64,000 nucleotides of DNA, taken from NCBI GenBank assembly GCA_039796295.1, contig JBDKJY010000037.1:2199-66198 (forward strand), read 5' to 3'. The notes under the pieces are model-generated. The model had not been told where the DNA came from, ran no database searches, and worked only from the letters and a program-made list of their open reading frames with translations. Position 1 is the stretch's first letter. Each line of letters begins with the position of its first letter. Origin of the DNA: Verrucomicrobiota bacterium. Its GTDB lineage: Bacteria > Verrucomicrobiota > Verrucomicrobiia > Limisphaerales > SXTU01. The translations under genes were made by a program, and so were the position numbers. Positions 3,407-45,610 of this stretch are shown here, one piece after another.

Positions 3407-6769
<3,363 letters not shown>

Positions 6770-13243: not shown

Positions 13244-15181
13244 CTAGCCTTCCACAGCCTGCTTCCCCGCGCGCCCCTGCTCCTGCTGCCAGAGCGTCAA
13301 CGCGGCCAGTGCGTGGCGCACGGTGAGGGTGGGCGGGTGCTTCAGGGCTTCGCGCAGACGGACCGTGTCCACCCACGGGTTGGGCTGGCACAGGCGCTCA
13401 TGCACCGCCGCCAAGGGCTTCGCCTCCTGCCGCTCCTTCTGCCGCTCCGCCAGCGCCGGGTCCTGCTTCACCGAATCCCACGGGACGGCTGGGGGGAAGA
13501 GCTTGCTCGTCGCATGCCGATACAGCACCCGACCCTGACCCGGCTGGTAATGCAGCTCCGGCGGCACGCCATACACGAACTCCAGCACCCGCCGGTCGGT
13601 CAGCGGGTAGGCATACGTCAGCCCGTGTTCCGCTCCGAAGGCCGCCCACGACTCCATCCGCGCCGTGACATGGCCGTGGTAATAGAGCGCCGCCTGGCAT
13701 CTCCGGCTCCCCGGCACCTCCCGCACGTGCGGCACGTCCGTGCGCAGGTGCGGGCGGATGCGCTCGGCGAACTCCACTCGGATAAACGGCTCGCCCCGCT
13801 TACTGCGCGCCTGCCGATACGCCAGCCGCTCCCACAGCGCGGCCGGCAACGTGGGCAGCACCGCACTATCCCAGAACGCCCGCAGCGCCACCAACGCCAG
13901 CCCCGGGCGACGCCACGCGCGCCCCAGCCCCAGATACCCCGCCAGCGCCCCCCACTCTCCGCGCACCAGATAATCCGCCGCCAACCCCCGCCCATTGTAG
14001 CTCACCCCTTCATCCCCGCCCCAACCCGACAGCATCAGCCCGACCCCTTGCGCCGCCGCGCGCACTTGCACCGACCGCTCCAGCCCCATCGTCAGCGCCG
14101 GCCGCAGGGAGATGTCCAGCTCCGCCATCCAGCGCTCATCGTCATCGGTGGCCTCCGTGTAGAGCGGCGTCAACCCCTCCTGCTGGCAGATGGCCACAAT
14201 GCGCCGGTGCTCCGTCTCCTCTGGCTTGGACCCCGGCGGTGGGGACCAGGAGAACATCGTGGGCACCGCCGCCCCGCGCTGCCGCTGGAGCCGCGCCGCC
14301 AGCACCGCCACCGACGATGAATCCAGCCCCCCGCTGAGGTGAGCCCCCACCGGCAGCCGCGTCCGCAAGCAATCCCCTACCGCCCGCTCCACCAGCGCGT
14401 AAAGCTGCTCCACATAGTCGGCGTGCCGCGCCAGCCGCACATCCGGCAGCCGCTCGGGGAACCAATACCGCGCCACCCGCAACCCCCGGTCATCCACCGT
14501 CAGCGTGTGGCCGAATGGCAGCTTGCGCACGCCCCGGTAGTAGGTGCGGACATTGTCATGCGCCCCCGGAGACAGGTTCAACAGCAGCCACCCCACCTCC
14601 ACCTCATCCAGCTCCCGCCGCACCCCGGGGATGGCGAGCAAGGCCGGCAAGTCCGTGGCGAAGGCGAACTCCCGCTCCGTGTGCCAGTAGAACAGTGGGC
14701 GTGCTCCGATGTGATCCCGCGCGAGGAACAGCCGCCGCGCCCCCGCATCCCAGACGGCGAAGGCGTAATCCCCCACCAGATGCTCCGTGCAGCCCTCCCC
14801 CCACCGCTCCCACGCCCGCAGCAACAGCGCCTCATCCGACACCATCGCGCGTTCCGCCGACGGCACGTCCAGCGCGGCGCACAGCTCCGGCCGTCCATCC
14901 AGCCGCGCATCCGCCACGACGGTCAAGGGTCCACGGGTGAGGATGGCAGTTTCCGGTAGGGCCGCGCTGTGCGCGGTCTTGTCTTCCTCCGGCCGTCCAC
15001 AGGACGGCCCTACCGCCTCCGGCGTGAAGTGCTGCACCTGGCAGCCGAGGGCGATGGGACCGCTGCTCCACAGGCCACGCGCATCCCGGCCATACTGCTC
15101 CATCAGGGACAGGGCAGGGGAGAGGGCCGCTGGGGAGACCGGCGCACCGTCCAGCCGGAACAGCCCGGCAATGGCACTCAT
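13244..15181 (-). CDS. asparagine synthetase-like lasso peptide cyclase (C protein) candidate
   Basis: 645-aa ORF. ATP-PPase motif HLSGGLDSS is present, but the N-terminus MSAIAG lacks the Cys2 glutaminase nucleophile. Compare the true AsnB at 33962..35878, which starts MCAITG. The start overlaps the PqqD stop (ATGA, 15178-15181). Confidence 0.8.
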   Translation of the reverse strand: MSAIAGLFRLDGAPVSPAALSPALSLMEQYGRDARGLWSSGPIALGCQVQHFTPEAVGPSCGRPEEDKTAHSAALPETAILTRGPLTVVADARLDGRPELCAALDVPSAERAMVSDEALLLRAWERWGEGCTEHLVGDYAFAVWDAGARRLFLARDHIGARPLFYWHTEREFAFATDLPALLAIPGVRRELDEVEVGWLLLNLSPGAHDNVRTYYRGVRKLPFGHTLTVDDRGLRVARYWFPERLPDVRLARHADYVEQLYALVERAVGDCLRTRLPVGAHLSGGLDSSSVAVLAARLQRQRGAAVPTMFSWSPPPGSKPEETEHRRIVAICQQEGLTPLYTEATDDDERWMAELDISLRPALTMGLERSVQVRAAAQGVGLMLSGWGGDEGVSYNGRGLAADYLVRGEWGALAGYLGLGRAWRRPGLALVALRAFWDSAVLPTLPAALWERLAYRQARSKRGEPFIRVEFAERIRPHLRTDVPHVREVPGSRRCQAALYYHGHVTARMESWAAFGAEHGLTYAYPLTDRRVLEFVYGVPPELHYQPGQGRVLYRHATSKLFPPAVPWDSVKQDPALAERQKERQEAKPLAAVHERLCQPNPWVDTVRLREALKHPPTLTVRHALAALTLWQQEQGRAGKQAVEG

Positions 15182-15465
15182 GCCGTCACCGTCTGGATGT
15201 GCAGCAGCTTGTCCGTGTGAAGCTGGGTGAGGAAGGCCAGCACCTCCCGCTCACACACCGCCGGGTCCACCTCGAACTCCGACTGGAGCTGGGTGACCAG
15301 CTCGCTCACCCGACACGGCTGTTCCACCGCCGCCCACACCCGAGTGGCCATGCGGTTCATCTGGTAGTATTCCCCATTCTCGATGCTCAGGAGCACGGCC
15401 TGCTCATCCAGCGTGCCGGAGATCAGCTCAGGGGCACGGACCACGGTGGAGGTAGAGAATATCAT
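15178..15465 (-). CDS. PqqD family RiPP recognition element (lasso B1/E-type chaperone)
   Basis: ORF 15178..15600; start moved to ATG 15465, giving 95 aa. Typical PqqD pattern: GTLDEQAVLLSIENGEYYQMNRMATRVWAAVEQPCRVSELVTQL. Translationally coupled to the cyclase. Confidence 0.85.
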   Translation of the reverse strand: MIFSTSTVVRAPELISGTLDEQAVLLSIENGEYYQMNRMATRVWAAVEQPCRVSELVTQLQSEFEVDPAVCEREVLAFLTQLHTDKLLHIQTVTA

Positions 15466-15553
15466 AGCGGCATGCAAAGTAAGGGGCAGCAGGTGAGGGT
15501 CAAGTCGGAACCCGGCCACACAGGCGACGGAGCGCGGGCGGTGGGTAGGGCTT

Positions 15554-15640
15554 GGAGTCCCGGCTTCAGCCGGTGGAGCCGTCCGGTTCACCTGTGCCAC
15601 GCGTGCGCGCTGCCGGCTAAAGCCGGGACTCCAAACGGGG
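15554..15640. repeat. 87-nt structured element, copy 1 (20-bp inverted arms GGAGTCCCGGCTTCAGCCGG / CCGGCTAAAGCCGGGACTCC)
   Basis: Near-identical copy at 17684..17770. The arms are complementary apart from one mismatch. Lies between the precursor A1 stop and the PqqD start. Confidence 0.8.
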
Positions 15641-15894: not shown

Positions 15895-16102
15895 CGGGAG
15901 AGGGTGGCCCAAGCGCACCGGAGCGCGGGTAGGGCGCGGTGTCCTCCCCGCGCCGCCGAATGGGGAGTGGCATCCGGTTGGCCCACGGCAAGGGGAGGCC
16001 ACCCCGCCCTACCTGCTCCCGGCTGCGGCCAGGCGCAGCTCAGTATTTTGCACGGCCAGGTGGGGATGGTGAATTCGTTGCTCACAAAACGTCGCGCGTC
16101 TT

Positions 16103-16245
16103 CACCCTCACCCCGGCCCTCTCCCTCCAAGGGAGAGGGAGAGCGCTTTACGCCGGCTCGTGCTTCCGAGCACGCCCTTTCGCCGCAGCGCGGCCTGCGT
16201 GGCTCCCTCTCCCAGCGGGAGAGGGCTGGGGTGAGGGAGAACGGC
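16103..16245. repeat. inverted pair of 'GEGRGEG-type' elements (CTCACCCCGGCCCTCTCCC..GGGAGAGGG)
   Basis: 16103-16145 and 16204-16245 are reverse complements of each other and flank about 60 bp. The same family occurs at 19261-19390, 28207-28333, 37623-37668, 46321-46362, 49150-49190 and 49296-49338. Confidence 0.8.
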
Positions 16246-16380
16246 TCCGAGTGCAGAACCGGGTTGCAGGAAAGTAATATGCGCCCCTGCGGCCCATCCC
16301 TTCATTAAGGCGTTGACAAACCAACCCCGTTTCGATAGAGAAAAACCGTCCACACAATCTGAACCGAACCAATCCAAGCT

Positions 16381-17073
16381 ATGCCCTTCAAATACATCCA
16401 AGTTCCGAACACCAAAGACCCGAACAAATCCTCCACCCGCGCCGCCCTGGGCGACCCCGTAAGCGAAGCCGAGTTCTTCGCCTACATGGCCATCCTCCTC
16501 AGCAAACCGCCTGCCGATTGCGAAGCGGCCTTCAATGCGTTGCTGGATACCTGTGTCCACTTCGCCCGGGATACCCGCGCCACCAGCTACCTGCATGGCC
16601 GCCTGCGTATGCAACCCTCCAGCGGCGGCAGCTTCGAGACCGGCACCACCCCGCACTCCCCCAAGGACATCGGCGCGCGTATGAACCTCAGCCTCGGACC
16701 TGATACCGTCGCCGCCTTCGAGGACGACCTGAGCATCGAGAAGGTGGGCGAGGAAGGGGTGCGCGCCCCGCAGATTGACCGCGTGATAGACAACCGCACC
16801 GGGGACACCGATAAATACACGGCCTCCGATGTGCTGGAGGTGGACGGGGAGCACTTCGAGATCGACCCGACGGACACCGCGCAAGGGGTCTTCCTCACCC
16901 CGGTGGCGAGCGGTTCGGCTGTGCGCATCACCCGTTACCTGAGCGTCACGCCTACCCGCATCGAAGTGCTGCTGCCGGCCGGCCTCACCGGCCAGCAACG
17001 CCTCATGGTGGTGTGCAAGTATGACACCAGCCCCCTGCGCTCCAGCACTTACACCAGCGCCCTCAGCCCGTAG
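16381..17073 (+). CDS. HU-like DNA-binding N-terminal domain plus DUF4469-like Ig-fold C-terminal domain protein
   Basis: 230-aa ORF. The C-terminal pattern IDRVIDNRTGDTDKYTASDVLEVDGEHFEIDPTDTAQGVFL...RIEVLLPAGLTGQQRLMVV resembles Bacteroidetes HU/DUF4469 proteins. On the opposite strand to the surrounding RiPP genes. Confidence 0.5.
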   Translation: MPFKYIQVPNTKDPNKSSTRAALGDPVSEAEFFAYMAILLSKPPADCEAAFNALLDTCVHFARDTRATSYLHGRLRMQPSSGGSFETGTTPHSPKDIGARMNLSLGPDTVAAFEDDLSIEKVGEEGVRAPQIDRVIDNRTGDTDKYTASDVLEVDGEHFEIDPTDTAQGVFLTPVASGSAVRITRYLSVTPTRIEVLLPAGLTGQQRLMVVCKYDTSPLRSSTYTSALSP

Positions 17074-17259
17074 GGTCACCCTCCGCCGGTCTGACCCCCA
17101 CCCTCCGCACCACCGAGGGTCACCCTCGCGACGCCGTAGGGTCACCCTCCGACGAGCTGAGGGTCACCCTCCATGAGTCTGAGGGTCACCCTCGTTACGA
17201 CTGAGGGTCACCCTCGTGACGGCTGAGGGTCACCCTCCGCGCGGCTGAGGATGACCCTT
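17071..17259. repeat. tandem array: 9 units at an exact 22-bp period of the 13-bp palindrome GAGGGTCACCCTC
   Basis: Units start at 17071, 17093, 17115, 17137, 17159, 17181, 17203, 17225 and 17247. Five are perfect GAGGGTCACCCTC, two are TAGGGTCACCCTC, and two are degenerate. Spacers are variable 7-mers followed by CT. Confidence 0.95.
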
Positions 17260-17423
17260 GGGGCAGCGCAGGGCTACGTTTGGAATGCACGTGGGGTGCG
17301 GGGCCATCGCCGCACCGCCTTGGTCTGGTGGAATTCAAGTGGCAGACGGCGGGGTGAGGACACCCGCGCTACTGGGAGGTCATTAGGCGAAGGGCCTAGC
17401 CGCCGGTAGGGCAGCGCTTGCGT

Positions 17424-17582
17424 CTATGAGGCCGGGCCTGAGCTTCTGGTAAGTTGTTCAACGGCAGTGATTACAGTCTTCTGGGTCTCATCGGCGAGGT
17501 CGAGGGGGAGGAGGAGCGGGGTCTCCCAGGGGAGCTTGGCGGCGGGGGCTTGCGGGGCGGGGGAGGCAGGTGCGGTCTGCAT
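17424..17582 (-). CDS. lasso-type precursor peptide paralog A2 (52 aa)
   Basis: Hand translation: MQTAPASPAPQAPAAKLPWETPLLLPLDLADETQKTVITAVEQLTRSSGPAS, stop TAG. Confidence 0.7.
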   Translation of the reverse strand: MQTAPASPAPQAPAAKLPWETPLLLPLDLADETQKTVITAVEQLTRSSGPAS

Positions 17583-17591
17583 GGCGGCGGG

Positions 17592-17619
17592 AGGGTAGCT
17601 GGGGTTGGCGAGCTGTCAA
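17592..17619 (-). promoter_or_regulatory. sigma70-like promoter candidate for A2 (TTGACA-16 nt-TACCCT, 9 nt to ATG)
   Basis: Minus strand has TTGACA (17619..17614) and TACCCT (17597..17592). Same module as the other three copies, but with no poly-G run in the spacer. Confidence 0.45.
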
Positions 17620-17683
17620 CGGAGGAGGCAGGCCCAAGCGGTGCGGAGCGCAGACGCCTCCATCCGCAGGCGGGTTGTGGCTG

Positions 17684-17770
17684 GGAGTCCCGGCTTCAGC
17701 CGGTGGAGCCGTCCGATTCACCTATGCCACTCGTGCGCGCTACCGGCTAAAGCCGGGACTCCAAACGGGG
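17684..17770. repeat. 87-nt structured element, copy 2
   Basis: More than 90 percent identical by eye to 15554..15640. Lies between the precursor A3 stop and the A2 promoter module. Confidence 0.8.
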
Positions 17771-17938
17771 CGACGGCGGGTTGCGTTCTCCCTCACCGCC
17801 TACCGACTCAGATGCTGGGGGACTGCGTCCCGCAGGGGCTCCGATGGGGGGAGTCGTAACCTAGGCAAGTCCGACCGTTGCTACGGGTCGCAGACCGGCG
17901 CTGCAAGCGCAGCGTTCAGTGCACCGGCGGCGGGCGGC

Positions 17939-18097
17939 CTACGAGACGGGGCCAAAGGCGGTTCCGATTTCGGTGCTTTGAGGGACGGGCCCGGAATTTG
18001 TCCCGGCGGGGACATCCAGGGGTGTGCAGAGCGGGGTCTCCCACGGGAGCTTGGCGGCGGGGGCTGTCGGGGCGGGGGAGGCAGGTGCGGTTTGCAT
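17939..18097 (-). CDS. lasso-type precursor peptide paralog A3 (52 aa)
   Basis: Hand translation: MQTAPASPAPTAPAAKLPWETPLCTPLDVPAGTNSGPVPQSTEIGTAFGPVS, stop TAG. Confidence 0.7.
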   Translation of the reverse strand: MQTAPASPAPTAPAAKLPWETPLCTPLDVPAGTNSGPVPQSTEIGTAFGPVS

Positions 18098-18106
18098 GGC
18101 GGCGGG

Positions 18107-18134
18107 AGAGTAGCTGGGGGGGGCGGGCTGTCAA
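18107..18134 (-). promoter_or_regulatory. sigma70-like promoter candidate for A3 (TTGACA-16 nt-TACTCT, 9 nt to ATG)
   Basis: TTGACA (18134..18129) overlaps the oxygenase stop codon (18131-18133). The spacer holds a G8/C8 run. Confidence 0.45.
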
Positions 18135-18787
18135 TTGATCGGAGCGCGGGCGTGGGGAGGGCGCTGCGGCTTGACCTTGTCCGCCTTGAGGTGGGCATAG
18201 GGGCCGTCCGCCCGGACGTAGTGCAGGAAGGTCTGGATCATCTCGGTGCCGGTGAAGGGCTCACGCCAATGGGGGCGCTCGATGCCCTGGTAGACCAAAC
18301 CATCCCCCGCCGCGAGGTGGGCGGGCACGGCTTCCCCGGTAGGCGTCTCCACATACAAAGGCCAAGGCACCTGCGGATCGGGCTGGAGGGCGAGGGAGAG
18401 GCTGATTTCGCAGGCGGGGCGGTCCGTGTGCCGGGCCAGCACGGCCCCCGGCTCGTAGATGCGCATGAAGGAGTAGGTAGGCAGGAGCCGGTGGCCGGTG
18501 AGCTGCTCAACCTGCGGGAGCAACCGTAGGAGGAGGTCCTCCGTGACGAGGTTCTTGTAGGCGACGGTGGCCGCTGTCACCGCTCCTTCGCCCCGGCGCA
18601 GGAGGTTGTGGGCCTTCATGGTCTTCAAGTCGGCGGCGGCCTTGGCGCAGACGGCGGCGGGCAGCAAGCCACGGGCGATGAGATAGCCGTGGGTGGCGAA
18701 GGCGTGGGCGGTGTCCACCGGAGCGGGAGGGGATGAAGGGGGACTGCTGGTGGGGGTCTGAGGTGCGCGGGGGGGTGGCGGTGGCAT
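18131..18787 (-). CDS. Fe(II)/2-oxoglutarate-dependent oxygenase
   Basis: ORF 18131..19195; start moved to ATG 18787 (MPPPPPRAPQ..), because the upstream part reads through precursor A4 and repeats. The HxD...H triad is visible: ARHTDRP and ERPHWREP. Confidence 0.75.
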   Translation of the reverse strand: MPPPPPRAPQTPTSSPPSSPPAPVDTAHAFATHGYLIARGLLPAAVCAKAAADLKTMKAHNLLRRGEGAVTAATVAYKNLVTEDLLLRLLPQVEQLTGHRLLPTYSFMRIYEPGAVLARHTDRPACEISLSLALQPDPQVPWPLYVETPTGEAVPAHLAAGDGLVYQGIERPHWREPFTGTEMIQTFLHYVRADGPYAHLKADKVKPQRPPHARAPIN

Positions 18788-18891
18788 CGGGCTCACGATG
18801 CAGCGGACTTTCCGCGTGGGAAGGACTAGCGTCAACCGGGAATCCGGACCCCAGACCCGCAGGCTGAAGGGGCGGACACGACCTGCTTGGA

Positions 18892-19047
18892 CTACGAGGC
18901 GGGGCCGGAGCGGGGACCGGATTCCCTGTAGAAGGTAAATGTTTTGTTTGTCTCTTCGGCGGCATCGAGGGTCTGGCAGACGGGCGTCTCCCAAGGGAGC
19001 TTGGCGGCAGGGGCTGGCGGGGCAGGGGAGGCAGGTGCGGTTTGCAT
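18892..19047 (-). CDS. lasso-type precursor peptide paralog A4 (51 aa)
   Basis: Hand translation: MQTAPASPAPPAPAAKLPWETPVCQTLDAAEETNKTFTFYRESGPRSGPAS, stop TAG. Confidence 0.7.
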   Translation of the reverse strand: MQTAPASPAPPAPAAKLPWETPVCQTLDAAEETNKTFTFYRESGPRSGPAS

Positions 19048-19056
19048 GACGGCGGG

Positions 19057-19084
19057 AGAGTAGCTGGGGGGGGCGGGCTGTCAA
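19057..19084 (-). promoter_or_regulatory. sigma70-like promoter candidate for A4 (TTGACA-16 nt-TACTCT, 9 nt to ATG)
   Basis: TTGACA (19084..19079) and TACTCT (19062..19057). G8/C8 run in the spacer. Confidence 0.45.
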
Positions 19085-19151
19085 CGGAGGAGGCAGGCCG
19101 CAAGCCCGGGGATGAGCCTGCGGGCGGCGAGCGGTTCCCCTAGCCATGAAC

Positions 19152-19218
19152 CGGAGCGCCGAGCATTGCTCGGCAGGAGCGGATGAACGCTCCAAAGCCG
19201 AGCGATGCTCGGCGCTCC
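19152..19218. repeat. REP doublet (GGAGCGCCGAGCATTGCTCGGC ... GCCGAGCGATGCTCGGCGCTCC)
   Basis: Same 22-nt REP family, in inverted pairs, as the copies flanking the RAYT gene at 62.6-63.6 kb. Confidence 0.85.
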
Positions 19219-19260
19219 ACCTCGGTTCAGGGGATGAAATCGCGGCAATTGATGGACCGT

Positions 19261-19390
19261 GGATTCTCTCCCAGCGGGAGAGGGACAGGGTGAGGGAGAA
19301 CGGCTAGGAGTCGTAGCGGGGAGGGATGTCTCCAGACCTCGCTGCCATTCTCCCTCACCCCAGCCCTCTCCCGCTGGGAGAGGGAGGCAG
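19261..19390. repeat. MITE-like unit bounded by an inverted pair of GEGRGEG-type elements
   Basis: 19264-19305 and 19346-19385 are reverse complements of each other (about 40-bp terminal inverted repeats). Confidence 0.75.
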
Positions 19391-19442
19391 GCAGGCCGCT
19401 TCAGTGTTAGCGAGGCGCTGGGGACACCTGGCCTTGCGTAGC

Positions 19443-20305
19443 TCAGTGCACCGGTTGGCCGGTGGCATCCAGGTAGCCATACTGGCGCATGACGTCGGCG
19501 TGGTCGGCGATGACGCGGGCGGCTTGCTCGGGGGTGAGGGCGTCGCGCCAGGAGCCGATGCTGCCCCGGCGGAAGAAGGCCTTGGCCTTGGGGAGGCGCT
19601 CCCGGAAGCCGCCGGCTTGCTCCTGCCGCTGGAGTTCCTCAAAGCGGCTGAACTCGATGGCCTTGCGGATGCGCTCGGGGTCGTCGGGCAGGCCGAGGAA
19701 GCGCACGGCGGTGGTGAAGGTGGCTTCGGGGGTGAGCTTCATGTCCTCGTAGCGGATGACTTGCACGCGGAGGCCGGGGGCGGTGGCCCAACTGGTGACG
19801 TGGCGGCTCCAGGAGAGGAGGCGCTGGCGGAGCTGGTTCGGCTCGGTGGCATCGCTGACGGCCACGCAGGCGTCGGGCTTGCCCAGCAGCTTGACGGAGC
19901 GCTCGTAGTCGGTGCTGCCGCCATGAGCGGCGTAGGAGACGGCGACGTCCAGGGGGTTACGGATAAAGTAGAGGGCGGCCTCGGTGGCCTCGGGGGGCAG
20001 GAGGGGGCGGCCGTCGGGCAGGAAGGTGTAGGCGTCGTGGCACTTGCAGTAGAGGGTCTCCTTGGCCTGGCGGGCGAGGTGGAGATAGACCTCGGGGCGG
20101 AGGGCGTCGGCCTCGTCGGGGGTCAGCTCGCCGGAGTCGTAGCCGACGGCGTTGTCGAAGGGGGCGCGGGCGCTGGAGATGGGGCCGCCGTCGAGGGCAT
20201 TGATGTCGGCGGGCTGGGGGCATCCCGGAGGAAGTTGGTGAGGAAGGTGCGGAACCAAGTGTTACCGGACTTGGGGTAGGAGGCGAGCCAGACGATGCGC
20301 TTCAT
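19443..20305 (-). pseudogene. sulfotransferase, split by a 1-nt frameshift (pseudogene or homopolymer sequencing error)
   Basis: The PAPS 5'-PSB motif MKRIVWLASYPKSGNTWFRTF (ATG 20305) is in one frame. The rest, including the 3'-PB-like IRNPLDVAVSY, is ORF 19443..20258 in another frame. Reading the G5 run at 20216-20220 as G6 gives a continuous ..FLRDAPQPADINALDGGPI.. Confidence 0.8.
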
Positions 20306-20318
20306 GGCGGGCGATGGC

Positions 20319-21256
20319 TCAGGGGCGGAAGTCGGCTTCGAGGCGGTCCACCAGCTCGGTGAGGCGGAAGGCGCCCTCGGGCCGGGTGACGCGGGTGACG
20401 GTGGCCTGCTGGGCGAGGGCCAGGGCGGCGCGGAAGTGGGCGGGCTTGGCGGCGAGGCCATCCACGAAGTGGAAGCGGTAGGTCTGCTGCTTGAGGGCGT
20501 TGAGGCGCTGGGGGCCTTCGACGGAGGTGAGCTGGAGGTCGGGGTCGTTAGTGGCGCGGAGGAGGTAGAGCTTGCGCACCGGGAGGGGGACGGTGGCGAA
20601 GGCGGTGCCCAGGGGGACGGCGCGCTTCTCCAGCGCGGGCCGGATGCGCTGGAGGCCATCGGGTGCGAGGTCGAATTGCTTGAGGGAGTCCAGCCAGAGC
20701 TTGGCATGGGGGAGGCCGGGGTGGAGGACGAGGCGGCCGGTGGCATCCGGGCGGATGGCACAGACGTCGTCGGTGAGGACGGGGTAGCCGCGGCGCTGGC
20801 AGGCGATGGCGGTGGTGGACTTGCCGACACCGGAGATGCCGAGGAAGGCAACGCAGGTATCACCCGTGGCGATGGCGCTGCCGTGGAGGACGAGGTCACC
20901 GCGTTGGTGGAGGAGGGCGGCGAAGGCGGAGCCGTAGAGGAAGAGGCGGACGTCCTCGGGGTCCGCACCGGGCGGGGACTCGATGACGATGCGCCGGCCG
21001 TCCGCGATGAGGAAGCGGGCGATGCCGTCCACGATGAGGAGGAGCTGGCCGGGGGCGGCTTGATAGCGGACGCCACGGTCGGTGGCTCCGGGGAGTTCGG
21101 TGGGGACAGGGCCGGTGAGGATCTCGACGTCGGCGGGGCCATCGGTGGAGGCGGGGGAAGCTCGGGGAGGGGCAGGGTGGAGTGGATGCGCAGGCCGTAG
21201 GCTTGGTGCTGGGGCGGTGGGGGCGGTGGGTTGTCTGTAGTTTCTGGGTCGGCCAT
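20319..21256 (-). pseudogene. HPr kinase-like (HprK-related) peptide kinase, split by a 1-nt frameshift (pseudogene or sequencing error)
   Basis: The N-terminus MADPETTDN..QAYGLRIHSTLPLPELP (ATG 21256) is in one frame. The body, with the P-loop FLGISGVGKSTTA, is in the frame of ORF 20319..21365. Reading the G5 run at 21153-21157 as G6 gives ..LPELPPASTDGPADVEILTG.. Confidence 0.65.
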
Positions 21257-21359
21257 GCGGAGCTACCGTTAGCATGAGGCGGAGGGTGATGTCGAGGGAG
21301 GGGGAGGGCGGGTGAGGATTGGCTGGCCTTGGCGAGGGTGGATTCCCCATGCTGAGGGG

Positions 21360-22487
21360 ATGCAATGGCTTGTGCCGGAACCGGAGTGGCTGGGGGCGTT
21401 ACCCACGGATGTGGCGGCGCATGTGCGGCAACTGGCGGCGTTACCGGGCTTCCCCCGGCACTTGGCCCGGTATAGCGCCGTGCTCAAGAAGCTGAACGAG
21501 AAGCACACTGGCTCGGCCAAGGTGCTGGCCGAGCAGGCGTGGCGGCTGGGGGGCCAGGACCCGGTGGTCCGCCAACACGCGCACTGGGCGATCAGCAAGC
21601 GGGTGCCGGGCTGGCACTTCGGGATCATCAACGACGACGCGCGGAATGCCATCTACCAGGCGGCGCTGAACCGGCATGTGCGTCCGGGGATGATCGTCTT
21701 CGAGGTGGGGACGGGGACGGGCATTCTCGCCATGCTGGCGGCGCGCGCCGGCGCGGCGCATGTCTATACGTGCGAGATGGAGCCGTTGCTGGTGGAGGTG
21801 GCGCGGGAGAACATCGCGCGGAACGGGCTGACGGAGCGGGTGACGGTGATTCCCAAGCGGTCGGACAAGGTGGAGTTGGGCGTGGACCTGCCGGAGCGGG
21901 CGGACCTCTTCGTGGCGGAGATCGTGGATAATGGCCTGCTGGGCGAGGAGGCGCTGGGCATCACGGCGGACGTGCAGGCGCGGCTGCTCAAGCCTGGGGC
22001 GGTGTTGGTGCCCGATCAGATCGAACTGCGCGGGACGCTGGTGGGCGGGCCGTTGGCGAGCCGGGCGTTCCGGGCGCGGCCGGCGTGTGGGCTGGATGTC
22101 TCGGCGCTGGACCGGCTGGGGTCGGGGGTGGTGCAAAGTCCGGCGGGGCTGGAGACGGACCTGGCGGAGGACGTGGTGGCGCTGCACTTCGATCTTGCGC
22201 AGGCGGGAAGTTACCGGACGGCGCAGACGAGCGTGGCGGTGCAGGGGCTAAGGGACGGTGAGGCGGAGGGTTTCCTGAGCTGGATCTGGCTGCGCTTCGG
22301 CGAGGGGCTGGAATACACGAACCGTCCGCCGACGGTCAGTTGCTGGGGTCCGCGCATTCACGTGTTCCCCACGCCCATGCCAGTGACGGCCGGCCACCTG
22401 GTGACGATGCAAGTGCAGCACGACTGCAAGCGGGTGAACATCTGGTCGGAGGCCGGTGGGGCCGGGGTAGGGGAACCGGCAGCGTAA
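21360..22487 (+). CDS. class I SAM-dependent methyltransferase, protein arginine N-methyltransferase (PRMT)-like
   Basis: ORF 21312..22487; ATG 21360. HFGIINDDARNAIYQAALNRHVRPGMIVFEVGTGTGILAMLAARAGAAHVYTCE matches the PRMT pre-motif I and motif I layout. ADLFVAEIVDNGLLGEEAL resembles the PRMT double-E loop region. Confidence 0.65.
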   Translation: MQWLVPEPEWLGALPTDVAAHVRQLAALPGFPRHLARYSAVLKKLNEKHTGSAKVLAEQAWRLGGQDPVVRQHAHWAISKRVPGWHFGIINDDARNAIYQAALNRHVRPGMIVFEVGTGTGILAMLAARAGAAHVYTCEMEPLLVEVARENIARNGLTERVTVIPKRSDKVELGVDLPERADLFVAEIVDNGLLGEEALGITADVQARLLKPGAVLVPDQIELRGTLVGGPLASRAFRARPACGLDVSALDRLGSGVVQSPAGLETDLAEDVVALHFDLAQAGSYRTAQTSVAVQGLRDGEAEGFLSWIWLRFGEGLEYTNRPPTVSCWGPRIHVFPTPMPVTAGHLVTMQVQHDCKRVNIWSEAGGAGVGEPAA

Positions 22488-22512
22488 ACGCAGGGCGGGG
22501 GTGCCGCCGCAC

Positions 22513-23619
22513 TCACCGCACGCGGACGAAGACCTTGCCGGGCAGTTGCCGCACCATCCGCTTCATCTCCAGACTCAGCAGCCCCACCGAGACGGCGGAC
22601 GCTGGCAGGCCGCTGGCGCGGATGACTTCGTCCATGTGCGCCTCCTCGTGCGTCACGACGGCGAGGATTTTGGTTTCGTTCTCCGAGAGGGACAGCCCCG
22701 GCAGCACGCCGGTCTCGCCGGGGGAGGGCGGCTTGTTCGAGGCGGGGAACAGATACTCGAACTCGCTCAAGATGTCCTCCGCGCCCTCGCAGAGCTTCGC
22801 ACCTTTCTTGATCAGGTCGTGGCAGCCCTTGCTGCGCGGCGAGTCAATCCGCCCGGGCACGGCGAAGACCTGGCGGCCGTAGTCCGTGGCGAAGTTCGCC
22901 GTGATGAGCGCGCCGCTGCTGAGGTTCGCCTCGACGACGACGGTGCCCAGCGTCATGCCCGCGACGATGCGGTTGCGGATGGGGAAGGACTGCTTGTCCG
23001 CCGGGCGGTTGAACGGGAACTGCGAGACAACCGCGCCACTCGCCGCGATGCGTTGGAACAGCTCTGCGTTCTCGGGCGGGAAGACCAAGTTAATGCCCGT
23101 GCCCAAGACCGCGACCGTGCGGCCCTTCGCCGCCAGCGCGCCCTGGTGCGCCGCCGTGTCAATCCCACGCGCCCCGCCGCTCACCACCGTGACGCCGATG
23201 TAGGCGAGTTGGTAGCCGAGCTTGCGCGCCGTCTCGACGCCGTAACTGGTGGTCTGACGCGAACCGACGAGCGCGACGGAGTGCTTGTCCTGTGCGGTGA
23301 GCGTGCCCTTCACGTAGAGCACGATGGGCGGGTCGTAGATTTGCCGGAGCGACTCGGGATACTCCGGGTCCTCCTGCGTGAGCACGTGGCAGCCGTAGTC
23401 CGCGATACGCTTCAGCTCGCCGCTCAGGTCAACGCCACTCTCCCAGTCGGCAATCGCGTCCGCCGTCTCCGCGCCGATGCCGCGCACCTGCTGGAGCTGC
23501 TGCTGGTTCGCGCGCAAGATGGTCGGCGCGTCGCCGAAGTGGTCGAGCAGTTGCCGGACGCGCACCGGGCCGACGTGCTCAATCAAGTTGAGGGCGATGA
23601 ACGCTTCCTTGGAGGTCAT
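22513..23619 (-). CDS. dprA: DNA-processing protein DprA/Smf
   Basis: ORF 22513..23928; start moved to ATG 23619. VALVGSRQTTSYG, SGGARGIDTAAHQGAL and FPIRNRIVAG motifs are typical of DprA. Confidence 0.9.
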   Translation of the reverse strand: MTSKEAFIALNLIEHVGPVRVRQLLDHFGDAPTILRANQQQLQQVRGIGAETADAIADWESGVDLSGELKRIADYGCHVLTQEDPEYPESLRQIYDPPIVLYVKGTLTAQDKHSVALVGSRQTTSYGVETARKLGYQLAYIGVTVVSGGARGIDTAAHQGALAAKGRTVAVLGTGINLVFPPENAELFQRIAASGAVVSQFPFNRPADKQSFPIRNRIVAGMTLGTVVVEANLSSGALITANFATDYGRQVFAVPGRIDSPRSKGCHDLIKKGAKLCEGAEDILSEFEYLFPASNKPPSPGETGVLPGLSLSENETKILAVVTHEEAHMDEVIRASGLPASAVSVGLLSLEMKRMVRQLPGKVFVRVR

Positions 23620-23775
23620 GGCTTTCGGATAGCGAAAGCGGCGCGGCGCGGCAAGCCACGAGTAGGGGAAAGTTTGCTCCGCATGGTGAGCGCGCCGGGT
23701 GGCCGGGAATGAGTGGCCTTGGCTAATCCCATTTTCTAGTGGAGCCGGGCGCGGGGCTTGCGCCAAGCTGCCGCT

Positions 23776-24576
23776 GTGGAAGTCATCATTCAACCCACAC
23801 CGGAAGCCGCTGCTGAGTTGTTGGCGCGGCTGGTCGCCCATGAACTGCACGCGCGGCCCAGCCTGGTCCTCGGATTGGCCACGGGCCGCACGATGGAGAG
23901 CGTCTATGACCGCCTCGCGCGGATTCACCGTGAGTCGGGGTTAAGCTTCGCCGGGACGCGCACCTTCAACCTCGACGAATACGTCGGCCTGCCCGCGAGT
24001 GACCCGCACTCGTATCGCCACTACATGCAGGAGCACCTGTTCCGGCACGTGAACGTGGACTTGCTCAACACGCATCTGCCGCACGGAGACGCCGCCGACC
24101 TGGCAGCGGAGTGTGAGCGCTACGAGCAGTTGATTGCGCAGTGCGGCGGGATTGATGTGCAACTACTGGGCATCGGGCAGACCGGCCACATCGGCTTCAA
24201 CGAACCGCTTTCGGCCTTGCGCTCCCGCACGCGGGTGAAGGCGCTTTCGCCCGTCACCGTGGCGCAGAACGCCTCGCTGTTCGCTGATCCGAGCAAGATG
24301 CCGCGGCGCGCGATCACCATGGGCGTGGGCACCATTCTCGAAGCCCGCCGGGTCCTGCTCCTGGCCACCGGCGCGGGTAAGGCGGAGATCATCGCCAAGG
24401 CGGTCGAAGGCCCCATCACCTCGATGATTTCCGCGACCGCACTCCAGATGCACCCGCGCTGCACCGTCATCGTGGATGAAGCGGCGGCGGCCAAGCTCCA
24501 AGGCGTGGACTACTACCGGTGGATTTTCGAGAACGAGCCGGAGTGGGAGCCGTATCGGACGCCAGCTATCTGCTGA
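23776..24576 (+). CDS. nagB: glucosamine-6-phosphate deaminase
   Basis: ORF 23758..24576 (TTG). The in-frame GTG at 23776 gives VEVIIQ, typical of NagB N-termini. LGLATGRTM, FNLDEYVGL and LLGIGQTGHIGFNEP motifs are present. Start is uncertain by 6 codons. Confidence 0.88.
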   Translation: MEVIIQPTPEAAAELLARLVAHELHARPSLVLGLATGRTMESVYDRLARIHRESGLSFAGTRTFNLDEYVGLPASDPHSYRHYMQEHLFRHVNVDLLNTHLPHGDAADLAAECERYEQLIAQCGGIDVQLLGIGQTGHIGFNEPLSALRSRTRVKALSPVTVAQNASLFADPSKMPRRAITMGVGTILEARRVLLLATGAGKAEIIAKAVEGPITSMISATALQMHPRCTVIVDEAAAAKLQGVDYYRWIFENEPEWEPYRTPAIC

Positions 24577-31222: not shown

Positions 31223-31229
31223 GGGGAGA

Positions 31230-31295
31230 GTGATTAGTAATTAGTGATTAGTGGGTGGCAGAAGAGTCGTCGCACGCAAACTAATTACTAATCAC
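31230..31295. repeat. hairpin built from complementary heptamer arrays (GTGATTAGTAATTAGT / ACTAATTACTAATCAC)
   Basis: 16-bp perfect stem (31230-31245 with 31280-31295) and a 34-nt loop. Lies between the DUF58 stop and the maf start. Confidence 0.75.
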
Positions 31296-32257
31296 TAACT
31301 ACTTCCTCCCCTCCTCCTCCGCTTCACCCGCGTGTCAAAGAACTTCCCCAACGCCGCCGCGTAAGGCTGGTCCGTGCGGAGCTGGATCGAGTCCAGGCCG
31401 ATGGTGCGGAAGGCGCGCCGCAGCGCGGTCTGGAACAGGGCTTGATGCTCGGCGAAGGCGGCGCGATGCCGGGCGTTGCTGGTCTGGATTTCTACGACCT
31501 CACCGGTCTCAGCGTCTTTCAACACGAGGCGGCCCAACGCGGGGAGTTCGAGTTCGTAGCGGTCGGTGATTTGCACGGCCACAAGGTCGTGGCGGCGATG
31601 GGCCTGCCGGAGGGCGACCTGCGTGGCAGGCGCGAGCGGTTCGCCAAAGGCCATCGGCTGCGTGGGTGCGCGCGAGCCGAAGCGCATCGGCGCACGGGCT
31701 TCGAGAAAGTCCGAGAGCACCACCACCACGGACTTGTGCGGAAGCATGCGGCTGACGAAGTGCAGCGCGCCCGGCAGGTCCGTGCCGTGGCGCTTCGGCT
31801 CGAAGAAGAGGATTTCGCGGATGACGCGCAGCACATGGCGACGGCCCTTGCGCGGCGGGATGAACTTCTCCACCTCGTCGCTGAAGAGCACGAGTCCTAC
31901 CTTGTCGTTGTTGCGGATGGCGGAGAACGCGAGCACCGAGGCGATCTCGGCGGCCAGCTCGCGCTTGGATTGCTCGCCGGAGCCGAAGAGGCCGGAGCCG
32001 CTCAGGTCCACGACCAGCATCACCGTCATCTCCCGCTCCTCCACGAACTTCTTGATGAACGGGTGGTTCATCCGCGCCGTGACGTTCCAGTCAATCGCCC
32101 GCACATCATCGCCGGGCTGATACTCGCGCACCTCGTCGAAGTTCATGCCTTGGCCCTTGAACACGCTGTGATACGCGCCGGACACGGACTCGGACACGAG
32201 GCGGTTGGTGCGAATCTCGATCTGGCGGATCTTCTTGAGCAGCTCGCGAGGGATCAT
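31295..32257 (-). CDS. DUF58 domain protein (MoxR-associated, vWA-like)
   Basis: 320-aa ORF. The motif FKGQGMNFDEVREYQPGDDVRAIDWNVTAR is the DUF58 hallmark. Confidence 0.85.
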   Translation of the reverse strand: MIPRELLKKIRQIEIRTNRLVSESVSGAYHSVFKGQGMNFDEVREYQPGDDVRAIDWNVTARMNHPFIKKFVEEREMTVMLVVDLSGSGLFGSGEQSKRELAAEIASVLAFSAIRNNDKVGLVLFSDEVEKFIPPRKGRRHVLRVIREILFFEPKRHGTDLPGALHFVSRMLPHKSVVVVLSDFLEARAPMRFGSRAPTQPMAFGEPLAPATQVALRQAHRRHDLVAVQITDRYELELPALGRLVLKDAETGEVVEIQTSNARHRAAFAEHQALFQTALRRAFRTIGLDSIQLRTDQPYAAALGKFFDTRVKRRRRGGSS

Positions 32258-43225: not shown

Positions 43226-45610
43226 GTGACTCCGCCTACCGCCCACTCCGATCCCGAAACGCCGAACTCGGAACGCTTCGTCACGCCCGGGCGTTTCGCC
43301 ACCCTGCTTGCTCTGCTCGTCTTCGTCTCGTGGTCGGATGTCCTCCTCGGCGCGGGGAGCTTCGTCCTGCGCGACTACAGCCTCTTTGGCTATCCCATCG
43401 CGCACTACCACCACGACTGTTTCTGGCGCGGCGAACTGCCGCTCTGGAACCCGCTCAACAACTGCGGCCTCCCCTTCCTCGCGCAGTGGAACACGCTGAC
43501 GCTTTACCCCGGTGCGCTCTGCTACCTGCTCCTGCCGCTGCCGTGGTCGCTGGGCTTGTTCATGCTGTTGCATCTCTGGCTCGGCGGCTTCGGCGTGTAT
43601 GCCCTCGCGCGCCGTTGGACGGAGCTGAACTTCCCCGCCGCCGTCGCCGGCGTGGCCTACGCCTTTCACGGCCTTGTGCAGCAATCCCTCATGTGGCCGA
43701 ACAACCTCGCCGCCTTCGCCCTGCTCCCGTGGGTCGTGCTGACGGTGGAAACCGGCGTGCGCGAAGGTGGTCGCAAGCACGTCGTGGCTGCGCTCGTCGG
43801 CGCGCTGCAAATGCTCACCGGCGCGCCGGAGGTAATCCTGTTCACCTGGCTGCTGGTCGCGGCGTTGGCGGCGGGGAGACTGTTCAGTGTTCAGTGTTCA
43901 GTGTTCAGAAGGTGTTCGGAACTCGGCGTGCCCACCGAGCGCCCGCCACTCTTCACTCTTCACCCTTCACTCTTCACTCCCCTCCTCCGCCTCCTCAGCG
44001 TCATCGTCCTCGTCACCCTCCTCGCCGCCGCCCAACTCCTGCCCTTCCTCGAACTCCTTCACCATTCGCAGCGGGACGCGGGCTTCAACGGCGCGATCTG
44101 GTCTTTGCCCCTCTGGGGCGCGGCGAACCTCGTATCGCCGCTCTTCCAGACAACGCTTTCCGCGCCCGGCGTGCCTTTCCAAAACGGGCAGAGCTGGACG
44201 GCTTCGTTCTACGCCGGCCTGCCCGTGCTCGCGCTCGCACTCGTCGCCGTCCGGCGCGGCAGTTCACCGCGGGTATGGGTGCTTGCGACCGTGGTGCTCT
44301 TGAGCCTCGCGACCGCCCTAGGTGAGAACGGCTGGTTGTATCTCGCCTTGAAACAAATCGGGCCGCTCGGCGGGATGCGCTACCCGGCGAAGTTCGTCAT
44401 CCCGCTCACCTTCGCGCTCCCGTTGCTCGCCGCCTTCGCGCTGCGCGACTTGCTCCCCGCCCCGGGCCAGCCGCTTCCCCTGGCCCCCACCGCTCGCCGA
44501 CGCTTGTGGGGAGCTGCCAGCGTGCTCCTCGCCCTCAGCGTAGGCCTCACGCTGTATGGCTGGAAGCACCCGGTGCCGGGCGAAGGCGAGGCCGGTCAAC
44601 ACCTCTTGCTGCGCGGCACCCTGGTGGGCGGCATCGCGCTGCTCCTAGCGCTCGCGGCCGTGTTGGGACTGGCGCGGGCCGGGACGCCGGGGCGAACCCT
44701 CAGCCTTAGTCTCGCGCTCCTGGTCTTGATTTTCTTGGACCTGAAAACCCACCTGCCCCAGCTCACCCCACGAGTCGCCCTCGACGTTTACCAGCCCGGT
44801 CATCCGCTCACGCAAGCCCCGGACGCCCCGCGCCTCGGTGGCCCCCGTGCCGCGCTCACCTGGCAGGCGGCGCAGGAGTTCAGAGGCAAGCTCCTGCCCA
44901 GCTTTACCGACACGCTCCTGAACCAGCGCATGGGCCTCTTCGGAGACCTCAATCTGATCGAGGGCCTCCCCAAAACCGACGGCTTCTTCAGCCTCTACCT
45001 GCGCGCGCAGCGGGAGGTTGAGACGCAGCTCATCTTCGGGAGCCAGACAAACTCGCTCCCCGACCCGATCCTGGACTTCCATGGCATCGCGCACCTCAGC
45101 TCCTCGACGAACCTCTTCCAGTGGCACCACCGCGCCACCGCCCTCCCGCTCATCACCGCCGGGCAACGCCCCGAGTTCGTCGCCGCCGAGCAGACCCTGA
45201 CTGCGCTCGGCTCGCCCGGGTGGAACCCCACGGCGACCGTTTTCATTCATCCGTGGGACCGGATGTATGTGCCCAACACCAACGCCACAACCGCCAAAGT
45301 CCTGTCCACGCACTGGACCGCCCACCGCATCGAGTGCGAAGTGGACTCGCCCGCGCCCACGCTGGTCGTCCTCGCGCAAGCGTTCTACACTCCGTGGCAA
45401 GCCACCGTGAACGGCCAGCCAACAAACATCCTTCGCGCCAACTACGCCTTCCAAGCCGTGCCCATCCCGGCTGGCCGGAGCACGGTGCGGCTGGAGTATG
45501 TGGACCACCGCTTCCAACTTGGTGTCGGGTTGTCCGCGCTCGGCCTCCTCGCGTGCTGCGTCCTCTGGTGCCGCGCCAAACCCAGCGCCTCACTAATCAC
45601 TAAACACTAA
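43226..45610 (+). CDS. YfhO-like GT-C membrane protein, paralog 1
   Basis: 794 aa, polytopic. The C-terminal pattern FYTPWQATVNGQPTNILRANYAFQAVPIPAGRSTVRLEYV is typical of the YfhO family. First of three tandem paralogs. Confidence 0.8.
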   Translation: MTPPTAHSDPETPNSERFVTPGRFATLLALLVFVSWSDVLLGAGSFVLRDYSLFGYPIAHYHHDCFWRGELPLWNPLNNCGLPFLAQWNTLTLYPGALCYLLLPLPWSLGLFMLLHLWLGGFGVYALARRWTELNFPAAVAGVAYAFHGLVQQSLMWPNNLAAFALLPWVVLTVETGVREGGRKHVVAALVGALQMLTGAPEVILFTWLLVAALAAGRLFSVQCSVFRRCSELGVPTERPPLFTLHPSLFTPLLRLLSVIVLVTLLAAAQLLPFLELLHHSQRDAGFNGAIWSLPLWGAANLVSPLFQTTLSAPGVPFQNGQSWTASFYAGLPVLALALVAVRRGSSPRVWVLATVVLLSLATALGENGWLYLALKQIGPLGGMRYPAKFVIPLTFALPLLAAFALRDLLPAPGQPLPLAPTARRRLWGAASVLLALSVGLTLYGWKHPVPGEGEAGQHLLLRGTLVGGIALLLALAAVLGLARAGTPGRTLSLSLALLVLIFLDLKTHLPQLTPRVALDVYQPGHPLTQAPDAPRLGGPRAALTWQAAQEFRGKLLPSFTDTLLNQRMGLFGDLNLIEGLPKTDGFFSLYLRAQREVETQLIFGSQTNSLPDPILDFHGIAHLSSSTNLFQWHHRATALPLITAGQRPEFVAAEQTLTALGSPGWNPTATVFIHPWDRMYVPNTNATTAKVLSTHWTAHRIECEVDSPAPTLVVLAQAFYTPWQATVNGQPTNILRANYAFQAVPIPAGRSTVRLEYVDHRFQLGVGLSALGLLACCVLWCRAKPSASLITKH

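Follow-up and report, generated by a model that had tools for sequence, protein, structure and literature searches.

What reads a run of nine short palindromes that are set exactly 22 bp apart and begin at the stop codon of a gene for a predicted DNA-binding protein? The question is raised by a stretch of 64,000 nucleotides from a Verrucomicrobiota bacterium (contig JBDKJY010000037.1 of assembly GCA_039796295.1, positions 2,199 to 66,198; the whole stretch is called the window below), in which such an array, at positions 17071-17259, follows directly upon a gene of the HU-HIG family, the product of which is predicted to join an HU/IHF fold to an immunoglobulin-like (Ig-like) DUF4469 domain. 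From a comparison of the genomic contexts of homologs of this gene (loci are labelled with L-numbers), we find that gene and array have stayed together through changes in the sequence of the palindrome and in the neighbouring genes. We put at roughly 70% the probability that the HU-HIG/DUF4469 protein, the gene of which lies directly upstream, has this array as its cognate binding platform in cis.

The array in the window

The nine units, read from the window sequence, keep an exact 22-bp register around the dyad core GAGGGTCACCCTC (Table 1). This core is exact in five of the nine units; units 1 and 4 carry TAGGGTCACCCTC, and the cores of unit 2 (GACCCCCACCCTC) and unit 9 (GAGGATGACCCTT) are degenerate. 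An earlier note on this DNA, made from the sequence alone, had described nine units at strict 22-bp spacing with a 13-bp dyad core, and this description holds, the register being perfect and seven units lying within one mismatch. The spacer, given there as a variable 7 nt, is 9 nt in full, of which about seven are variable and the last two (CT) are semi-conserved. The placement of all sites on one face of the helix is an approximation, in that 22 bp correspond to ~2.1 turns of relaxed B-DNA and the sites would be aligned only if the bound DNA were slightly overwound. Arrays of the kind seen in the window and at locus L003, which is taken up below, can be described by the motif form GAGGGTSACCCTC.

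Tandem Repeats Finder reports the array at 17072-17258 with a period of 22 and 8.5 copies, and with periods of 44 and 66 as well. At up to one mismatch, GAGGGTNACCCTC has seven matches in the 64-kb window, all of them within the array, against an expectation of 0.18, and none of 100 shuffled sequences reached this number; self-identity at a lag of 22 is 0.77 at the array, the highest value of the window, where the runner-up has 0.45. The window holds this one array only. Mean relative entropy per position is 1.35 bits in the core and 0.49 bits in the spacer, and mean pairwise identity is 0.85 among the 13-bp cores and 0.42 among the 9-bp spacers, the latter not far above the ~27% estimated from base composition. 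Since recent slippage would have duplicated the spacers too, this contrast in the sequence indicates selection on the core and not recent slippage.

The TAG that ends the gene supplies the first bases of unit 1, as the earlier note had it, and at L136, where the protein is 87% identical, the TAG likewise runs straight into the array register. The note was also right that neither a coding frame nor a known repeat class accounts for the array: a scan of the whole window against Rfam gave no match at the gathering threshold, and a coding explanation was rejected on the grounds that the period is not a multiple of 3, that the cores vary by lineage and that the open reading frames (ORFs) across such arrays look spurious. 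A CRISPR array (clustered regularly interspaced short palindromic repeats) was rejected as well, with a core of 13 bp and a spacer of 9 bp to be set against repeats of ~23-50 bp with spacers of similar or greater length; no cas genes were present among the Pfam matches of the window ORFs. An inverted-repeat search of 16900-17700 with a seed of 9 returned zero pairs because the arms are only 6 bp long. A promoter and terminator scan of 16000-17800 found no sigma-70-type promoter and no terminator flanking the array, although the same scanner missed a terminator at L156, the stem of which is lengthened by its A/U tracts and which was folded directly instead.

The HU-HIG gene and its product

The 230-residue protein encoded upstream of the array is identical to RL514_3675 of a Verrucomicrobiota metagenome-assembled genome (MAG). 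It matches Pfam DUF4469 (PF14734) over residues 132-217 (E 2.4e-9; 37.5 bits against a cut-off of 22.6), as do 22 of 24 relatives; PF18291 is matched by three of the 24 family members (best E 2e-8), the window protein itself falling below that model. An AlphaFold2 prediction from 11 sequences had a mediocre mean confidence (pLDDT, predicted local distance difference test) of 69, yet matched 4FMR and HU proteins, with IHF and TF1 among the weaker Foldseek matches to this first model; with an alignment of 32 sequences the pLDDT was 91.3. Foldseek against the PDB returned all four chains of 4FMR over the full length (E 1e-13), and the N-terminal domain of the model matched HU proteins at a probability of 1.0. 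Residues P79, G82 and G83 are invariant in all 32 homologs and lie between model strands 75-80 and 100-105, in a segment that is predicted to be the arm of the HU fold.

The structure 4FMR is that of BVU_2165, a member of the HU-HIG clade with an Ig domain (PMC5499826), and it has the same two-domain build as the window protein. The homology to HU-HIG rests on the Foldseek result, on the family matches in three of 24 members and on a hidden Markov model match at 7e-8 to a Bacteroidales HU-HIG protein that is described below. On the strength of the predicted structure, the window protein is a member of the HU-HIG family, with an HU fold and an Ig-like DUF4469 domain, and the label 'HU-like/DUF4469' that it had been given can be kept. 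In public data, the DUF4469 branch of HU-HIG alone comprises 406 cluster representatives at 50% identity.

Conservation of the gene and its array

The gene and a 22-bp-phased array are found together in about 10 of 12 Verrucomicrobiota lineages, among relatives that range from close (56-87% identical to the window protein) to distant (about 25-33%), and thus down to a protein identity of ~25%. At L127, GAGGGTGACCCTC recurs ten times at 22 bp, the first unit lying 16 bp past the stop codon. L136 and L143 have 8 and 11 units, with the 22-bp register intact and the cores decayed, and L129 shows a weak lag-22 signal exactly at the position right after the gene. Other loci have arrays built on other dyads: eleven 22-bp units with CCAGCAAsTTGCTGG at L133-135, and units of the same length with TTGCAcgsTGCAA at L137-142, where the copy number differs among contigs that encode an identical protein. 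At L144 (33% identity), at least 16 units of CATACGsCGTATG, in the same 6-1-6 geometry as in the window, run from 20 bp past the stop codon with zero indels over 16 diverged units and about 350 bp, and a register so free of indels argues for selection on helical phase. The most distant loci include L154 (about 25% identity), with five copies of AAACCCGsCGGGTTT; L155 has 66-bp units (3 x 22) that contain GTCGGAGTCACTCCGAC, and L156 has seven perfect 22-bp units. The units of L156 and of the first half of the L137-142 arrays are direct repeats with little dyad symmetry. Several homolog contigs end within or at the arrays, as repeats would predict.

The genes that flank the pair vary by clade and include gatCA, RNase E/G, peptidase M29, response regulators and ECF sigma factors. 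Because the flanks change and the pairing stays, the conserved unit is the gene together with its array, the geometry of which is fixed and the sequence of which changes. A tblastn search of plasmids with the window protein gave no match.

The pairing extends beyond the Verrucomicrobiota. An exact search of species-representative genomes (a set to which the source genome of the window does not belong) for two GAGGGTCACCCTC cores 22 bp apart returned three loci, two of which (L001 and L002) are in GC-rich gut MAGs labelled 'uncultured Bacteroides'. The GAGGGTGACCCTC core is present four times in L001 and three times in L002, 50-130 bp upstream of a gene that matches the Pfam HU-HIG family at E 1.5e-20 and that is matched at 7e-8 by the profile of the Verrucomicrobiota family. 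With 13 further HU-HIG loci drawn from plasmid and phage collections, most Bacteroidales loci were found to have 3-5 palindromes at 22/23 bp, as a rule at a distance of 30-300 bp ahead of the start codon. The palindromes differ by lineage, examples being TGACACCCGGGTGTCA, GTGAAAnGATCnTTTCAC, TCACnnnnGTGA, GTTCACTAnAGTGAAC, GACAGCTGTC and CTATAGTCGTACGACTATAG; TGACACCCGGGTGTCA has four copies at the gene of B. finegoldii WP_004314067.1, and GTGAAAnGATCnTTTCAC has 4-5 at that of P. distasonis WP_008779936.1. A Treponema HU-HIG locus, L151, has a weaker periodic array downstream. Over periods of 9-45 bp, the top repeat period was 22, 23, 44 or 45 in 22 of 26 HU-HIG loci and in 4 of 60 control segments taken from the window, in which such periods are rare because multiples of 3 dominate.

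At two Bacteroidales loci the array is 0.9-1.5 kb upstream and does not adjoin the HU-HIG gene (L149 1-130 and L153 419-529); in L149 a hypothetical/DUF4373 gene pair lies between it and the HU gene. The HU-HIG genes of both loci belong to a recurring cluster with DUF3987/VapE, DUF4248, amidase and 'smalltalk' genes.

A model for the gene-array module

The earlier proposal of a protein-binding array with the adjacent protein as its likely ligand is strongly supported by the conserved pairing, by the period that stays fixed while the palindrome changes and by the independent decay of half-sites described below, and the binding event itself may be pictured as follows. The protein would form the two-fold symmetric dimer that is typical of the HU fold, with one dimer for each 13-bp dyad. 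The strict spacing of two helical turns would set successive dimers in nearly equal helical phase, in which neighbours might touch, possibly through their Ig-like domains, so as to bind cooperatively. At ~2.1 turns per unit, successive sites would gradually rotate around the helix if the bound DNA were not overwound to 11 bp per turn. Up to nine dimers might in this way assemble into a single large complex, bent or wrapped, that covers about 190 bp. Gene and array would then be a co-evolving, two-part module in which specificity shifts between lineages and geometry remains constant.

The promoter-proximal position of the Bacteroidales arrays suggests autoregulation. For the larger arrays on the 3' side of Verrucomicrobiota genes, a high-avidity nucleation, sequestration, roadblock or architectural (centromere-like) site is more likely than a promoter operator. 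A broader proposal, to which we give somewhat less than an even chance, is that the HU-HIG family is a large class of HU-fold binders with sequence specificity that has gone unrecognised, each member being paired in cis with its own 22-bp array, and that the 3' arrays of the Verrucomicrobiota branch (8-16 units) are multi-dimer, wrapped chromosomal elements of a new architectural or centromere-like kind that work without a known NTPase (nucleoside triphosphatase) partner.

Several observations weigh against the array as the binding platform of its neighbour. At L126, where the protein is 74% identical, the context after the gene has no array, and at L136 and L143 the protein is intact despite the decayed cores, which may mean that the array can be done without or is read loosely. 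At L003, L039, L034, L046 and L008, same-core arrays are found with no HU-HIG gene in the available sequence. The 3'-flanking position has no established regulatory logic, and a different, unlinked factor could be the ligand. The alignment of the window family with the Bacteroidales HU-HIG family by hhalign is weak. In the analysis that defined the family, sequence-specific binding by HU-HIG proteins was judged unlikely, and the Ig domain of 4FMR partly occupies the DNA cleft (PMC5499826).

Alternative explanations

The array might instead be transcribed with the gene and act as RNA, as an element of the 3' untranslated region (3'-UTR) that folds into tandem hairpins, or into one long hairpin, at the stop codon. 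It would then serve in mRNA 3'-end stabilisation, in termination or in slowed translation termination, as has been proposed for the repetitive extragenic palindromic (REP) sequences of E. coli. REP arrays have been reported as 3'-UTR regulators and HU-associated RNAs (PMC4550694; bioRxiv 10.64898/2026.03.23.713779), and the arrays of the window, L136, L127 and L143 begin at the stop codon or no more than about 20 nt from it, with no intervening terminator. The predicted folding energy of -8.8 kcal/mol for a single unit and of -146.9 kcal/mol for the entire array (z -3.95) agrees with such a role, but a good RNA fold is expected of any palindrome array. Within-unit complementarity does not exceed between-unit complementarity in six of the eight arrays with informative variation, and in the remaining two the difference is marginal (uncorrected p about 0.04-0.13); the half-sites decay independently, with no compensatory changes. 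The central base switches freely between C and G within and between arrays. Both features are to be expected of a symmetric dimer site that can be read from either strand. At L156 a classic A5-hairpin-U5 terminator (-29.8 kcal/mol, z -8), and at L154 a strong hairpin (-34.9 kcal/mol, z -6.2), stand between the stop codon and the array, and the arrays of both loci are probably outside the mRNA. Hairpins do not need a strict 22-bp phase free of indels, and RNA stability does not require a palindrome that varies with the protein lineage; the direct repeats of L156 and of the first half of L137-142, with their little dyad symmetry, and the absence of an Rfam match likewise speak against RNA. The lack of co-variation, the C/G flips, the hairpins that precede two of the arrays and the position of the Bacteroidales arrays upstream of their genes favour a DNA-level protein site over RNA hairpins, and we consider a function as RNA unlikely.

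At the level of DNA, the reader of the phased array might be another, unlinked protein by which the HU-HIG gene is regulated or marked, and not the HU-HIG protein itself. Binding by the adjacent product is a prediction, the Ig domain of 4FMR sits in the DNA cleft and there are same-core arrays that stand apart from HU-HIG genes, all of which fit such a factor. It would, however, have had to diversify in step with every HU-HIG lineage across three phyla, no second gene is conserved with the module (the neighbours differ in every clade) and the dyad sites suit a homodimeric HU fold; we regard this explanation, too, as improbable. The same-core arrays in other intergenic spots of other genomes (L003, L039, L034 and L046), together with the other REP-like elements that are common in the window, could also be taken to mean an ordinary dispersed palindromic repeat, of the REP/BIME type (BIME, bacterial interspersed mosaic element) or the MITE type (miniature inverted-repeat transposable element), that was spread by a transposase and came to rest beside the gene by chance. 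Yet the adjacency to the gene is kept in about 10 of 12 Verrucomicrobiota lineages and in most Bacteroidales loci with lineage-specific cores, there is a single array in 64 kb, and in the window and at L144 the phase is strict and the variable linkers and alternating orientation of REP/BIME elements are not seen. No transposase or RAYT-like gene (RAYT, REP-associated tyrosine transposase) was noticed among the flanking genes that were examined, in which no dedicated search for them was made. An origin by dispersal has, in our estimate, very little chance of being correct.

The earlier note had also raised the possibility of an iteron-type origin or of a plasmid or chromosome partition centromere, either of which would work together with an initiator or NTPase of its own. 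The iterons of R6K and pPS10 classically have a tandem period of 22 bp (PMC4980987), and the array does have phased tandem repeats within the 17-22 bp of iterons, although its units are dyads and not asymmetric direct repeats; tandem palindromes beside the gene of a putative binding protein recall sopC and SopB (PMC3177203), and at one of the homolog loci, L126, a ParA-like gene lies 1 kb downstream. L126 is, however, the locus that lacks an array. The ORFs flanking the window module have no match to a Rep family, nor to ParA, ParM or TubZ, in Pfam or NCBIfam. The origin features that the note had suggested looking for did not appear: the GC content is 0.63-0.69 in every 200-bp segment around the array, with no AT-rich stretch that could be an unwinding element, and DnaA boxes have 4 matches where 2.7 are expected, which form no cluster and none of which is less than 4 kb from the array. 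The homolog modules, moreover, are set among housekeeping genes (gatCA, RNase E/G). Both the origin and the plasmid-centromere reading were given up on these results, and we see almost no room for either.

Arrays with the same or a similar core elsewhere

Arrays with the window core that stand apart from any HU-HIG gene could be trans sites of the protein or could be unrelated to it. The array of L039 is between ilvN and leuA. That of L003 (5564-5806, in a MAG labelled Proteobacteria, WB5_2B_004) has 11 units at 22 bp between serS and a glycogen-synthase-like gene (glgA); its first units consist of the right half-site alone (CCCACCCTC), four full dyads follow in the middle, and towards the end the units drift. 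The 8 kb of available sequence contain no HU-HIG gene.

A metagenome scan gave more than 120 matches, mostly on low-GC contigs with mixed 17/22-bp spacing. On these contigs (38-44% GC, from Ga0126336 and the OFE* metagenomes; L006, L010, L024-L026, L028, L031 and many others), AGGGTNACCCT forms dense clusters with spacings of 17, 22, 49 and 61 bp, which look like a eukaryotic (coral-associated) satellite, unlike the bacterial arrays, and were set aside. Pairs of the form xAGGGTWACCCTx elsewhere (AAGGGTWACCCTT and CAGGGTWACCCTG) are heterogeneous and have no established tie to HU-HIG genes. Two copies of AAGGGTWACCCTT or of CAGGGTWACCCTS at a spacing of exactly 22 bp are seen repeatedly in metagenome contigs that look prokaryotic and are unrelated (L066 at 3530-3595, L029, L058, L074, L084, L103, L111 and L122), one such pair being directly upstream of a recA-like gene. 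A scan of viral contigs for the motif pair yielded two phage sites, which are unrelated.

Relation to known systems

The array shares with iterons (those of the R6K gamma origin and of pPS10, with a 22-bp period, and those of RK2, F and P1) a head-to-tail arrangement, a 22-bp period and a place beside the gene of the presumed binder. In iterons cooperativity depends on helical phase and is abolished by a half-turn shift (PMC4980987). Iterons are, however, asymmetric direct repeats for winged-helix Rep monomers and come with an AT-rich element and DnaA boxes in an autonomous replicon, whereas the window array is made of dyads beside the gene of an HU-fold protein in a chromosomal setting that has no origin features. 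Of the centromeres, sopC lies directly downstream of sopB. It consists of 12 tandem 43-bp repeats, each with a 16-bp inverted repeat that is bound by SopB (PMC3177203), and the arrays bound by ParR or omega (parC, and the omega heptads of pSM19035 parS) give rise to complexes that are wrapped or superhelical, and can serve as operators as well (PMC5016525). These systems need an NTPase (SopA, ParM or delta) and use helix-turn-helix or ribbon-helix-helix binders; at the window array no NTPase partner was found, and period, core and protein fold differ from theirs. By analogy, the array would act like an iteron, a centromere or an operator array and be a member of none of these classes; it does not qualify as an iteron or a centromere because a Rep gene with an unwinding element, and a partition NTPase, were looked for at the window array and not found.

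The E. coli REP/BIME elements (REP325, naRNA4) are likewise tandem extragenic palindromes in 3' flanks with a reported connection to HU (PMC4550694), although the nucleoid role of REP325 is contested (bioRxiv 10.64898/2026.03.23.713779). REPs are longer palindromes that alternate in orientation, are joined by variable linkers, number in the hundreds across the genome and are not paired with a specific HU gene; the window array has a strict phase and a core that is specific to the protein lineage. IHF, Hbb of Borrelia and TF1 of phage SPO1 are examples of HU-fold proteins that recognise specific sites and bend DNA sharply. They use single sites, mostly asymmetric in the case of IHF, and are not known to have long phased arrays of dyads beside their own genes.

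Burroughs et al. (2017; PMC5499826) described the HU-HIG family itself as a radiation of the Bacteroidetes in which gene linkage is hardly conserved at all. The members from Verrucomicrobiota and Bacteroidales examined here do show a conserved partner in cis, which is non-coding and therefore escapes gene-neighbourhood analysis. The literature that we searched held no paper linking HU-HIG or DUF4469 with repeats, and none that was relevant on the core sequence. The family is strongly expanded in human-gut Bacteroidales, is present also in Verrucomicrobiota and Spirochaetota and has no assigned function. If the array is indeed the partner of the protein, a conserved non-coding element that varies with it would overturn the view of HU-HIG as unlinked and non-specific (PMC5499826), and would provide a predicted target site for each paralog, by which the function of the family becomes testable. 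It would also make the family a natural series of HU folds with shifting specificity and unchanged binding geometry, with a bearing on how non-specific nucleoid proteins turn into specific ones. Should the 3' arrays of Verrucomicrobiota build large wrapped complexes, they would be a new type of chromosomal landmark.

The surrounding locus and other features of the window

The earlier note had placed the array in the middle of a locus for a ribosomally synthesized and post-translationally modified peptide (RiPP), and this is correct for one side, where a lasso cyclase gene (NF033535, E 1e-94) and a PqqD chaperone gene are found (Table 1). On the other side there is a precursor candidate only, a 52-aa ORF convergent on the array that is conserved in L136 and was matched by no family model. 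It has a WETPLL motif like the YxxPxL motif of lasso leaders, and its possible core, KTVITAVE..., is preceded by a Thr at -2 and has a Glu at position 8. Judged by these sequence features, the ORF may be the missing precursor of the lasso cluster, and in the lineage of the window the HU-HIG module may lie inside that cluster. An array that is a RiPP element in general was rejected, since the homolog modules are in unrelated, non-RiPP neighbourhoods; the link is not conserved, and the array thus belongs with the HU-HIG gene and not with the RiPP pathway.

Table 1. Coordinates of the array, of the HU-HIG gene and of other features in the window
Feature	Position	Strand	Remarks
HU-HIG gene, 230 aa	16381..17073	+	HU/IHF-fold N-terminal domain and Ig-like DUF4469 C-terminal domain (predicted)
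TAG stop codon	17071..17073	+	Ends ORF 16381-17073; bases 1-3 of unit 1
Unit starts	17071, 17093, 17115, 17137, 17159, 17181, 17203, 17225, 17247		Direct reading
Unit build	17071-17259 (array)		13-bp dyad core GAGGGT-C-ACCCTC and 9-bp spacer
Best-conserved block	17115..17237		Six successive cores (five exact GAGGGTCACCCTC, one TAGGGTCACCCTC); spacers divergent
Lasso cyclase and PqqD chaperone	13244-15600	-	
52-aa ORF	17424-17582	-	Candidate lasso precursor
ORF pair	19326-20279, 20295-21200	+	Tightly spaced
PrmA-like methyltransferase	21312-22487		After ORF 20295-21200
dprA	22513-23928	-	
Heptamer repeat pairs	43881-43908 and 43947-43979; 46268-46297 and 46402-46437; 49083-49112 and 49382-49406; 31229-31253 and 31280-31303		
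Further heptamer repeats	45590, 48444, 56800, 2346		
REP-like element	16200-16245, 46330-46360, 49150-49190, 49300-49335		First copy directly upstream of HU-HIG gene

Beyond the array and the lasso cluster, GC skew is strongly positive (0.23-0.31) over 17600-22500, and the two plus-strand ORFs of this region that precede the PrmA-like gene have no Pfam or NCBIfam match. Intergenic regions of the window contain a recurrent REP-like element, CCCTCTCCC-N-GGGAGAGGG followed by GGGGTGAGGG, which is found also in other PVC-like contigs (PVC, Planctomycetes-Verrucomicrobia-Chlamydiae), with copies in L003 (5940-5990) and L129 (7020-7075).

The window, from a genome of 66% GC, also has many AT-richer tandem repeats of 7 bp in 3.4-4.7 copies (among them TGTTCAG, CACTCTT, GTTCAAA, GTCCAAA and CACTAAT). 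They are arranged in pairs, apparently on either side of intergenic spacers at the ends of genes, and several of the heptamers place a stop codon in all three frames of one strand (TAA in CACTAAT; TGA in the complement of GTTCAAA). Similar heptamer arrays are found near Bacteroidales HU-HIG and 'smalltalk' genes (L152 2082-2129 and L153 2399-2437).

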